Source: an uncultured archaeon
GTDB lineage: Archaea; Asgardarchaeota; Lokiarchaeia; Sigyniarchaeales; Promethearchaeaceae
DNA: 5,082 nt
NCBI GenBank assembly: GCA_964426185.1
Contig: CAYRPF010000061.1
Location: forward strand, 2,966 to 8,047
Reading direction: 5' to 3'
A program made the position numbers and the translations under genes. Under the pieces are notes generated by a model. The model was not told where the DNA came from. It did not search any database and saw only the letters and a program-made list of their open reading frames with translations. Numbering within the stretch: position 1 is the stretch's first letter; each line of letters begins with the position of its first letter. Positions 809 through 5,082 of this stretch are shown piece after piece.

Positions 809-1606
809 TTAAAAACTCCATGTTTTTACCAATGTCCATACTCCAAGCCCACAAGTAATAATCCCAACCAAAGGTTGGAACTTTTCCACTTGAATCTTTT
901 TAACGGTAAGTACTGCAAAGGGAACAGAGCTTAGTGCTCCAGCTAGTAATGCTAGAACGAATTGAAAATTAAAAGGAAACGTTTTTGTTAGTATGTAAAT
1001 AATTAAAGCACCTGCACACACTGCAGCTTCTGATAAAGAAGTCGATGCCACAGCTTGTTTGGGGTTTCTATCGGTAACGATCTGTCCTGAAGAGACTAGG
1101 GGGCCATATCCACCTCCCGACATGCCTTTGTTGAATGCTGCCAGCAATCCAATCCCTACAATTTTAGCCCAACTAAATTTCCATTTGAAGTTGAGCAGAA
1201 CTAAAAGCCCCACCATAGTTACCAATATACCAATATATGTATTCACAATTGCAGCAGGGATGTTAATTGCAACCAAGGCCGCTACCACTCCCCCTAAAAC
1301 ACCAAAAATTCCTAAAATAATTGCAATTTTGGCATCTTGGGAGATCAACAGTGCTTTTTTATTGAGATTTCGATCGATTTCCAAGGTGAAGTTAGCATTA
1401 CCGGCTCTATGATGCATAATTGCTGAAATTATACCTGTAAAAAACTCTGTGATCAATATCGCTGGTACAACCATGGCCTTGTCTAGCCCTAAAATTAAAA
1501 GAATAGGAGTCAAAATGGTACCGTAGCCGCCACCTAAGGCAGAATCTATGTATTCGCACACAAGGGCCAACCCAGCTACAAAAACTAAAAACAATACGGA
1601 TTCCAT
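809..1606 (-). CDS. Sulfite exporter TauE/SafE (TSUP) family membrane transporter, 265 aa
   Basis: About 8 hydrophobic segments. Two internal repeats carry the TSUP glycine motifs (DSALGGGYGTILTP; KGMSGGGYGPLVS) and there is a 'AVASTSLSE' motif. SD-like GGTGTGA lies just upstream of the ATG. Confidence 0.9.
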   Translation of the reverse strand: MESVLFLVFVAGLALVCEYIDSALGGGYGTILTPILLILGLDKAMVVPAILITEFFTGIISAIMHHRAGNANFTLEIDRNLNKKALLISQDAKIAIILGIFGVLGGVVAALVAINIPAAIVNTYIGILVTMVGLLVLLNFKWKFSWAKIVGIGLLAAFNKGMSGGGYGPLVSSGQIVTDRNPKQAVASTSLSEAAVCAGALIIYILTKTFPFNFQFVLALLAGALSSVPFAVLTVKKIQVEKFQPLVGIITCGLGVWTLVKTWSF

Positions 1607-1845: not shown

Positions 1846-2040
1846 ATGGTGCAAATCAACCTCGATGAAGTGTCTTTTATCAGCGAAACATCAATCACAA
1901 TCCGCAATAGCCGTCGAAGGACAACCGTCCCCAAAGAAATCGTGGAAAAATTTCACTTAAAAGATGGAGATCGCCTCCGTTGGATCCTTTTCGATGATGG
2001 AAAGATCTTGATTAATTGTGTCCATTCAAATCCGAGCTAG
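1846..2040 (+). CDS. AbrB/MazE/SpoVT-family (swapped-hairpin) DNA-binding protein, 64 aa
   Basis: RRTTVPKEIVEKFHLKDGDRLRWILFDDGKILI matches the family pattern x-TIPKEI-x3-LxLxxGDxLxW/F-x3-DGKIxI. Confidence 0.85.
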   Translation: MVQINLDEVSFISETSITIRNSRRRTTVPKEIVEKFHLKDGDRLRWILFDDGKILINCVHSNPS

Positions 2041-2301
2041 AAAAGTGCCAATAAATGACGATTCTCCTTACCCCATTAAATCTGGTAATTATATATTAAT
2101 TGAAATTCAAGATGAAGGTAAGGGTATTCCTTTAAACATTCAACATAAAGTTTTTGAACCATATTTTACCACGAAACCTAATTGAACCGGATTAGGATTG
2201 GCCACGATTTATAAATTGATGTAAAAATTCAAGGATATATTCTGTATGAATCTTTGGAAAACAAGGGCACCACTTTTTTTCTTTATTTTCCCAAGAATTA
2301 A
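2018..2301 (+). pseudogene. Remnant of a sensor histidine kinase C-terminal HATPase_c domain
   Basis: The frame from 2018 reads VSIQIRARKVPINDDSPYPIKSGNYILIEIQDEGKGIPLNIQHKVFEPYFTTKPN*TGLGLATIYKLM*, showing the G1 box DxGxGI, F box FEPYFTTK and G2 box (G)TGLGL. Stops are at 2183-2185 (TGA) and 2222-2224 (TAA). After a frameshift it continues IQGYILYESLENKGTTFFLYFPKN* to 2301. No H box or N box is present. Confidence 0.88.
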
Positions 2302-3159: not shown

Positions 3160-3242
3160 ATGAATCACATAACGAAATCAAGCGCATTTGACCCGGGAAT
3201 AAGGGTTTATCGCACTTGTTCGTGAGTGATAAAAAGTTTCAT

Positions 3243-3258
3243 AATATAAATTTTTTTT
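3243..3258 (-). promoter_or_regulatory. Candidate BRE/TATA promoter of rpl2
   Basis: Minus strand AAAAAAAA-TTTATATT (A-rich BRE followed by TATA). A second candidate, GAAAC-TTTTTAT, lies at 3240-3229. Confidence 0.45.
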
Positions 3259-3493: not shown

Positions 3494-4711
3494 TTACCAA
3501 ACTTTGACTTTTCCTTCCAGAAGGTCTTGTCTTAATGTGAGATAATCGTCCAATTCTGTTTGTAGTATTTCCTTCGCCCGTAAGCTGACATTATCGAAGT
3601 TTACATTGGCTGCGGGGATAAGTTCGATATCTCCCATCCAAGGTTTATTGATTGGGTGCCCGATTTGGCTGAGAATTCTAATTTGACATTCAACCACATC
3701 GCCTTGCAATTCATCAATGATTTTTCGAGCAGCGCGATTTGCTACCAGAGAATAAAGTTTTCCCACGTGGTTATTACTGTTTTTCCCGGCAGCTGCTTCC
3801 AAGGTTTGCACCCTTCCTGGGGTGATTAAACCGTTTGCTCGATTTCCTCGACCCACTTGGCCGTCATCTCCTGCTTCAGCACTGGTACCGGTAATAGTGA
3901 GGTATAGAATATCCTTTTCTAAAATATCTCCCGTATTAACCGAAACGCGCACTTCATGGTCGCATGAAATTACACTGCAGACTTCTAATGCGGCTTGTTT
4001 CACAGTTTCCACGGCGTTAATATATTCAGATTTGTCGTGTACATATTTAGAGACCATAGCATTGCAAATGGTGAGTTCAATTTGATCTCCATTTCTCAGT
4101 CCCATGACTTTAATATCTTCGCCGGAAGCGGGGCATTTATTTTTAAATGCATCAGAATTTAAGTATTGTTCTACGTTATAAACCATCTGTTCCGTCGGGC
4201 TAAATGGAGCAAAACCCACTCCAAAACTGGTGTCATTGGCTAATGGGACCATATTCAGTCCTGCATCGTATAGTCCGGTTAAATCAACTGAGCCGCTTTT
4301 GGTGCGGGCGTCTATAATTACATCTCGATTCAGGTCAATATTTCGAAAGGTGGAAAGAAATACATCTTTAATCGTGTTGCGTAAGAGAGTTCTTACAGGT
4401 ATTTGCTGAATTTTACCATCAATCAACACAGTATCAACGGCTCGACCGATGATTTCAAATTCTTGTGGCTGGAAAATTTTACCACCTCCGAATTCTGGAA
4501 TTGCTTGTCCCGCCACATAGGCGGCTTTATCTAAATTAAGGTGAAAATATTGTCCGTATTCTTCTAAATAGTATTTTGTTAATTCACGAGAACAAGCTTC
4601 CGCAGCTTCATCTGCCACGCTGTCTGGATGGCCTTTTCCCTTACGTTCGACCATTTCGGGGAAATCGCTTAACCCAGTTGGAACACGATTCGATTTAGTT
4701 ACATGTAGCAT
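3494..4711 (-). CDS. mat: S-adenosylmethionine synthetase (methionine adenosyltransferase), archaeal type, 405 aa
   Basis: Motifs EMVERKGKGHPDS, HLNLDK, PLANDTSFGVGFAP, GEDIKVMGLR, YLTITGTSAEAGDDGQVGRGNRANGLITP and EAAAGKN..NHVGKLY. Start set at ATG 4711 (MLHVTK...), which gives the usual ~400-aa length and has SD-like GGATCTGA at 4724-4717. Confidence 0.97.
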   Translation of the reverse strand: MLHVTKSNRVPTGLSDFPEMVERKGKGHPDSVADEAAEACSRELTKYYLEEYGQYFHLNLDKAAYVAGQAIPEFGGGKIFQPQEFEIIGRAVDTVLIDGKIQQIPVRTLLRNTIKDVFLSTFRNIDLNRDVIIDARTKSGSVDLTGLYDAGLNMVPLANDTSFGVGFAPFSPTEQMVYNVEQYLNSDAFKNKCPASGEDIKVMGLRNGDQIELTICNAMVSKYVHDKSEYINAVETVKQAALEVCSVISCDHEVRVSVNTGDILEKDILYLTITGTSAEAGDDGQVGRGNRANGLITPGRVQTLEAAAGKNSNNHVGKLYSLVANRAARKIIDELQGDVVECQIRILSQIGHPINKPWMGDIELIPAANVNFDNVSLRAKEILQTELDDYLTLRQDLLEGKVKVW

Positions 4712-4716
4712 TTTTT

Positions 4717-4842
4717 TCAGATCCAATGTTAAACTCTTTACAGGATTTGTGGGTTGAAACAATCCAATGATAGGATAAGAAGTGAGAAATTTGTAAATGT
4801 TATCCTTTAATGGGTATAGACTTGCACAACCGCACAAACACC
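4717..4842 (-). promoter_or_regulatory. Structured 5' leader of mat (candidate cis-regulatory RNA)
   Basis: Long imperfect hairpin: UUUGUG-C-GGUUG (4838-4827) pairs with CAACC-CACAAA (4756-4746). Inner helix AGGAUAA (4806-4800)/UUAUCCU (4778-4772). An alternative hairpin at 4746-4721 covers the SD-like GGAU. Confidence 0.6.
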
Positions 4843-5082
4843 AAATATTTAGATTAAATAATGTAAAATATTATTTGAATATTGTTCATTCCCATTAGGA
4901 ATACTTGATATGGGGAGAAAATCAGTTAATCTTTTGTATTTCATGGGGAAAATTACCAACAATGGTATGAAATGGTAAAGTAAATCAAAAAAAATGTACT
5001 TTGCAATTTTTCATATAATGAAATGATATGCATTTGAGGAATATTTTGTAATCCACCTAAATCTAATTCAATCACCTCTATC

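Follow-up and report, generated by a model that had tools for sequence, protein, structure and literature searches.

The metK gene is a classic target of SAM riboswitches. In the SAM-III class, three stems surround a three-way junction, the Shine–Dalgarno (SD) sequence lies within stem P1, and the ligand contacts are fixed (PMC6914780). Another class, SAM-VI, was validated although fewer than 20 examples were available and comparative support was poor (PMC6914780). In archaea, known riboswitches are few, chiefly those for TPP and fluoride (PMC5473149), and a literature search returned none for archaeal MAT genes. METTL16, the methyltransferase of the MAT2A feedback system, reads a UACAGAGAA consensus in the transition between loop and stem (PMC8287941). 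Simpler leader structures are also known: 5′-terminal stem-loops stabilize bacterial mRNA (according to titles of works cited in PMC3997798), RNase J-like activity is present in all archaea (PMC3997798), and in the methanogen Methanolobus, 5′-terminal structure and exposure of the ribosome-binding site set translation (PMC5499594).

The window analyzed here, a stretch of 5,082 nucleotides, contains an archaeal SAM synthetase gene, mat, preceded by a long interrupted hairpin. We know of no Asgard archaeon in which start sites or leaders have been mapped. An earlier note proposed that the hairpin is an undescribed SAM-feedback RNA, either a riboswitch or a hairpin bound by a protein or methyltransferase. 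Because the mat hairpins differ so much between relatives, we read the element as an ordinary protective or tuning structure rather than a SAM sensor.

The mat locus and its predicted leader

The mat gene occupies positions 3494–4711 on the minus strand and encodes an archaeal-type SAM synthetase of 405 amino acids (PF01941, E = 1.7e-140). Its ATG at 4711 is the start codon position common to mat orthologues in a locus comparison. The nearest named relatives of the protein, at 90% identity, are Ca. Harpocratesius sp. and H. repetitus, which identifies the window as that of a Ca. Harpocratesius species or Harpocratesius-like Lokiarchaeon; the sequencing runs in which it occurs come from vent and marine metagenomic DNA, and none of those listed is an RNA run, a listing that carries no information on expression. 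Public gene calls place the MAT start at TTG 4837 (447 aa, P0027) or at TTG 4726 (410 aa), and both appear to extend the 405-aa protein too far. The locus was compared across this species, H. repetitus-like strains (L010, L072, and L045), L073, which was recovered through the divergent gene and joins the overlapping L044 by an identical 66-nt segment, and the more distant L046, with 86% protein identity.

A BRE/TATA-like promoter core lies at 4861–4879 on the minus strand, with its TATA-like element at 4868–4861. It is gap-free and conserved in four lineages, and its layout matches those of the rpl2 promoter and the tRNA promoters of this genome. The block of ~60 nt at 4844–4902 is gap-free in all listed lineages and 74–79% identical among the first three. 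Archaeal TATA boxes usually lie about −30 to −23 from the transcription start, which puts the predicted start near 4839–4835, at the foot of the hairpin; within the predicted start zone (4835–4842, minus strand), spacing from the TATA-like box makes G4839 or G4835 most likely. In this model, the outermost two to five hairpin pairs may lie upstream of the start. The nearest gene upstream of mat is divergently oriented and rpl2, downstream of mat, has its own promoter; the hairpin therefore lies between the promoter and the mat start.

An SD-like GGA..TGA motif at 4717–4724 (minus strand) ends 5 nt before the ATG, and its GGA and TGA are invariant in four lineages. GAGGTGA-type motifs are enriched at −15 to −8 genome-wide, indicating that SD use is general in this genome. 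With a promoter-like block directly upstream, an SD-like motif before the ATG, a single copy, and relatives that fold on the mat strand, the leader position claimed in the earlier note holds up, and the mat transcript very probably carries 4743–4842 as its 5′ leader. No upstream open reading frame with an ATG occurs in the mat leader of this species, and those in the relatives are unrelated. A scan for sigma-70 promoters and terminators, a type unsuited to archaea, gave nothing.

The promoter block also contains a 5-N5-5 palindrome block at 4883–4902 (strand not assigned; palindrome at 4902–4888), which adjoins the BRE upstream and is a candidate transcription-factor site. The block contains invariant columns, the palindrome is perfect here and in L073 and has one mismatch in H. 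repetitus, and the pattern has only two intergenic copies in this genome. A search of 101 genomes with the promoter-block pattern, allowing two mismatches, gave matches that are coding noise, and the exact pattern across all GTDB genomes occurs in H. repetitus plus unrelated bacteria. The promoter/palindrome block, much better conserved than the hairpin, is the more likely site of any real mat regulation. By eye, a similar palindrome is seen just before the mat SD of Ca. L. ossiferum (L011 and L074).

Other parts of the window and contig show features of their own. An AbrB/MazE-like small gene at 1846–2040 (plus strand) is divergent from a TauE/SafE transporter gene at 809–1606 (minus strand). 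Between the AbrB/MazE-like gene and a tRNA-Lys gene lies a 55-codon HATPase_c fragment at 2018–2185 (plus strand), probably a remnant, as L045 and L072 carry whole histidine-kinase genes nearby. An assembly gap bounds the window at its end (5054–5082 and beyond); other assemblies resolve it as a 29-nt unit repeated 2.8 times in tandem (L039:2581–2661). Outside the window and two genes from mat, beside archease, the gene at G000:C61:8907–9950 (plus strand) encodes a protein of 345 amino acids whose N-terminus is a lysine/alanine-rich repeat (weakly HC2-like) and whose C-terminus is hydrophobic.

The hairpin in this copy and in its relatives

The long interrupted hairpin spans 4743–4842 on the minus strand. 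Folding recovers the pairings as they were first drawn: a 22-bp outer stem with three G-U pairs, a 10/5 internal loop, and a 7-bp inner helix (4806–4800 with 4778–4772) closing a 21-nt loop. The minimum-energy fold has −22.0 kcal/mol and a z-score of −2.67, a stability that 3 of 200 dinucleotide shuffles reach; the inner helix alone contributes −2.1 kcal/mol. This window was chosen by hand, and upstream regions of the same genome, scored alike, served as background. The proportion of such regions that fold as well is 31% by regression z (n = 1097), 18% by z, 16% by energy, and 5% by both in a second set (n = 681), and 27%, 11%, and 7.5%, respectively, in a third (n = 536). The third comparison, which used 300 shuffles for its targets, deserves more trust, as z-scores from 25–40 shuffles are noisy (L010 scored −1.35 in one run and −2.98 in another). 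The hairpin thus beats its dinucleotide shuffles but stands out only weakly from upstream regions of the same genome, 5–31% of which are as good. With flanks (143 nt), z becomes +0.08 and significance is gone. Computed stability falls to −10 to −4.5 kcal/mol at 60–70 °C. Taken alone, the hairpin of this copy is only weakly significant.

The note had also argued from G-U pairs that the element acts as RNA. The plus strand of 4743–4842 folds to −21.8 kcal/mol, with two G-U pairs against three on the minus strand, which makes the three G-U pairs weak evidence in this copy; the argument is stronger in the relatives, where sense and antisense folds (−36.9/−27.6, −21.1/−9.9, and −20.1/−13.0 kcal/mol) favor the mat strand in every case. 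The hairpin is single-copy in this genome (G000), which agrees with the view that it is not a multi-copy, MITE-like element, and the H. repetitus version is single-copy in G001. A sequence search of 161 genomes of the class with the hairpin gave nothing beyond short chance matches. Within the species, position 4812 (minus strand), in the internal loop, varies between C and U (L041, L043, and run X6, the last from one low-depth contig); contigs from four DNA sequencing runs contain no other leader variant.

Positional equivalents with other structures are found in L073, L045, and L010. H. repetitus has a compact hairpin of ~50 nt after the promoter block (z −3.0 to −3.2, hand-cut), and L073 has a branched structure of ~120 nt (−36.9 kcal/mol, z −3.0, hand-cut). 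Sizes across the three Harpocratesius lineages are thus about 50, 100, and 120 nt, with different pairing, and in all three the hairpin starts 30–32 nt behind the same gap-free promoter motif. Of the two lineages that had no share in the original finding, scored against the genome background, L073 ranks in the top 7% by z, 0.7% by energy, and 0.4% by both, and the H. repetitus strains in the top 13–23%, 8–15%, and 4–8%, respectively. The comparison rests on three hairpin-bearing lineages related by descent, and of 137 orthologous G000/G001 upstream pairs, 8% pass both thresholds (26% given the first, by a noisy regression z). For both reasons, the recurrence of a long mat-strand stem above background in the relatives is suggestive, not decisive.

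Sequence and pairing have changed extensively between these lineages. Identity is 41–51% in the hairpin region, 74–79% in the promoter, and 73–82% at the coding start, with the SD region also above the hairpin; hairpin-region identity equals or approaches that of shuffled sequences (p = 0.05, 0.09, and 0.75). Of 29 pairs, 13–17 are kept in L073 and 7–10 in H. repetitus, with 0–2 compensatory changes, depending on the alignment. The consensus fold reaches −5.0 kcal/mol with many pairs broken. A covariance model of this copy (R1), run with filters off, gave no other match among 24 mat loci, missing both relatives at E ≤ 10, and matched none of 140 other genomes of the class (141 searched in all). 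Conservation and covariation in orthologous leaders, whose absence the earlier note named as a refutation of its proposal, are therefore largely lacking. Smaller resemblances exist: the stem foot is common to L073, in which 2 nt inserted on one arm are opposed by a 2-nt difference on the second arm; two H. repetitus-like strains differ at seven hairpin positions, five of them apical, and share an identical 9-bp core helix; and GGAU occurs near the apex in all three lineages. Position, strand, and a long stem recur in the three congeners; sequence and pairing do not.

L046 shares the promoter and has a leader of 35–45 nt, a promoter–SD gap ~95 nt shorter, and no hairpin, and the structure is therefore dispensable. 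The regions upstream of mat at more than 30 further loci from Lokiarchaeia showed neither a similar sequence nor a comparable hairpin; two of these regions have z below −2.5, which is the background rate, and several of the loci have a TATA-like box ~25–35 nt before the ATG, leaving no room for such a leader. A metagenome scan returned three loci, all distant.

The rpl2 (uL2) leader of the same window provides an internal control. Its hairpin, at 3172–3223 on the minus strand, has 13+4 bp, and the gene has its own BRE/TATA at about 3243–3258. The leader is 88% identical in H. repetitus, and across three lineages it keeps 17 of 17 pairs, with three compensatory changes; the consensus fold has −20.8 kcal/mol, and with so few sequences, shuffle counts are not probabilities. 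The rpl2 leader was not found outside the genus. It is a candidate ribosomal-protein autoregulatory leader and an RNA with better support than the mat hairpin, which behaves very differently at the same distances. Elsewhere in the genome, the upstream region of G000:C65:709–1483 (minus strand) gives a strong fold in each of the two species compared, at −27.9 and −28.7 kcal/mol per 100 nt, and may, on these predicted folds, be another conserved leader.

Proposed SAM sensing and a possible METTL16 parallel

The mat hairpin matches no SAM class in Rfam, as the earlier note had judged by eye. Scanning all 4227 Rfam 15 families with cmscan, among them the other SAM/SAH classes (SAM-II, IV, V, VI, SAH, and SAM-SAH), gave no match over 4700–4850 at E ≤ 10 and none on the relatives' leaders at E ≤ 5; the only Rfam matches in the window and relatives are tRNAs. 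SAM-III (RF01767) is missing from the locus at E ≤ 10, with a best score of 16 bits elsewhere in the genome against a cut-off of 45, and SAM-I (RF00162) is likewise missing, its best score in the genome being 14.9 bits against 44.4. A TPP riboswitch, considered from a loose motif echo, was rejected as having no Rfam match. A SECIS element was also rejected: the AUGA/GA core is missing, neither strand has a selenoprotein gene upstream, and mat contains no in-frame TGA.

Like SAM-III and SAM-VI, the mat hairpin precedes a SAM synthetase gene, contains a GGAU/AUCC helix, and has a possible SD-masking fold; unlike them, it has no conserved core and no model match, and its SD lies outside the main fold. 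Whereas SAM-III is built on a three-way junction, the mat fold is a single unbranched stem that ends 18 nt before the SD. The ligand contacts of SAM-III are invariant, whereas mat loop bases vary within the species and between congeners, and the internal loop of this copy is a helix strand in L073. A loose echo of the SMK motif had been suggested; it falls away because SAM-III does not match at the locus, the fold has neither a three-way junction nor an SD helix, and other strains of the species carry U at 4812 in place of the third C of the "SMK-like" CCC. A conserved aptamer with covarying pairs was not found among the three carrier lineages, a comparison that a very young element could escape. 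Taken together, the absence of conserved pairing or sequence in relatives and the failed SAM-class tests speak against SAM sensing by this hairpin.

In an alternative fold, the last bases of the stem pair with the SD; this fold is 3.8 kcal/mol less stable than the best one but overtakes it for a transcript starting at 4835. The SD-masking hairpin alone has −3.1 kcal/mol and z +0.96. SD switching is thus possible in the folding model but weak, and its form is not common to the relatives.

The locus resembles MAT2A/METTL16 in having a hairpin on a SAM synthetase mRNA in a genome that encodes a distantly METTL16-related methyltransferase with an NPPY motif; it differs in that the hairpin is 5′ rather than 3′, is unconserved, and has no UACAGAGAA, and in that the enzyme is present where the hairpin is absent. 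The nonamer does not occur within one mismatch in this leader or in that of L073, contrary to a METTL16-type reading, and a one-mismatch copy in the H. repetitus leader lies outside its hairpin and is absent from the other lineages. The methyltransferase (G000:C75:12564–13508; L157:1065–2009) has 314 amino acids and an intact NPPY motif. It is closest to P. furiosus PDB 3EVZ (E = 8.6e-35) and then to U6/METTL16 enzymes (E about 1e-9), and it has a partial PF05971 match of 50 bits, far below the RlmF cut-off. The 3EVZ protein, a possible structural homologue of METTL16, itself is without the N/D of the motif (PMC8287941). The 314-aa enzyme also occurs in 8 of 13 further genomes in the family, including genera without the hairpin; searched with this query, families f3 and f4 gave no match.

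Competing explanations for the leader hairpin

We give about even chances to a genus-restricted 5′-terminal stem-loop that is kept for being double-stranded and serves mRNA stability or translation tuning. The promoter suggests an untranslated leader of ~125 nt whose transcription would start at the hairpin foot, and the predicted stem would begin at the 5′ end of that transcript. The leader would fold back on itself, with the stem ending 27–44 nt before the ATG and the SD left mostly open; in the best fold, opening the ribosome-binding site costs 2.6–3.0 kcal/mol here. In the comparison, the lineages retain a long double-stranded 5′ end and neither individual bases nor a pocket, a pattern consistent with pairing, not sequence, being what matters. 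By analogy, the likeliest job of the hairpin would be constitutive, shielding the 5′ end from 5′-to-3′ ribonucleases and setting the translation rate of SAM synthetase, a housekeeping enzyme. The closest described parallels are 5′-terminal stem-loops of the E. coli ompA/papA and B. subtilis aprE type and the long, structured 5′ UTRs of methanogens (Methanolobus rpsO): as in these, a long hairpin occupies the predicted first nucleotides of the mRNA upstream of an open SD, and its shape is kept rather than its sequence. The mat hairpin differs in being longer and more interrupted and in its Asgard host.

The stretch may instead hold no selected structure, a somewhat unlikely reading in which a drifting spacer has a G/U-rich start and a C/A-rich end that pair by chance, and the tendency is inherited. 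The hairpin region is the least conserved part of the locus, the fold differs in each lineage, background rates are 5–31%, this copy has no strand preference, and L046 has no hairpin, all as drift predicts; against it, both other lineages outrank the majority of upstream regions in folding (L073 is within the top 1% by energy), and position and strand have stayed the same despite change enough to destroy a neutral stem. Less probable is a regulatory hairpin recognized by a protein, be it one that binds double strands, a processing nuclease, or a METTL16-like methyltransferase that would provide SAM feedback of the mammalian MAT2A kind; release of the foot would free the 3′ end of the stem to pair with the SD. 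The small energy gap to the SD-masking fold, the start at 4835 that would favor it, the encoded 3EVZ-like NPPY enzyme, and the apical GGAU all fit a protein reader. The missing nonamer, the occurrence of the enzyme, with its low RlmF-family score, in genera without the hairpin, and the insignificant SD-masking hairpin do not, and the rpl2 leader, which resembles a protein site, is 88% identical between the same species.

For a new SAM/SAH riboswitch class, in which SAM bound at the internal loop shifts the stem foot onto the SD, we retain a very small probability because of the gene context and the SAM-VI precedent, to which the predicted 5′ leader position and the near-isoenergetic SD-masking fold may be added. 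Opposed to this are the lack of a conserved unpaired core in three congeners, a loop that is polymorphic within the species and becomes a helix strand in L073, the Rfam and covariance-model results, and the scarcity of archaeal riboswitches. The broader proposal of a young, Harpocratesius-specific SAM feedback, with either SAM or a METTL16-related methyltransferase shifting the foot onto the SD, is only slightly less improbable. A decayed mobile insertion, a MITE-like palindrome placed between promoter and SD in the genus ancestor, would explain the shorter L046 gap and the complementary element ends, and is slimmer still as a prospect: the element is single-copy in G000 and G001, no target-site duplication is common to the lineages, and G-U pairing in the relatives is strand-biased. 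That the stretch encodes a 42-residue N-terminal extension of MAT is scarcely credible. The frame is open from TTG 4837 and the 447-aa public record adopts it, but relatives have in-frame stops 2–25 codons upstream of the ATG, an SD precedes the ATG at 4711, and the predicted transcription start lies too close to 4837 for a ribosome site to fit ahead of it.

A SAM response, if true, would to our knowledge be the first archaeal case of control by a SAM-responsive RNA, and an Asgard parallel to MAT2A; it would show how an archaeal SAM synthetase is controlled and bear on the origin of MAT2A/METTL16 feedback, an outcome that we judge unlikely. The better lead in the window is the conserved rpl2 leader rather than the mat hairpin. 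If the 5′-terminal stem-loop of mat only stabilizes or tunes its mRNA, it would be a small undescribed case of Asgard leader structure, in which shape outlasts sequence.
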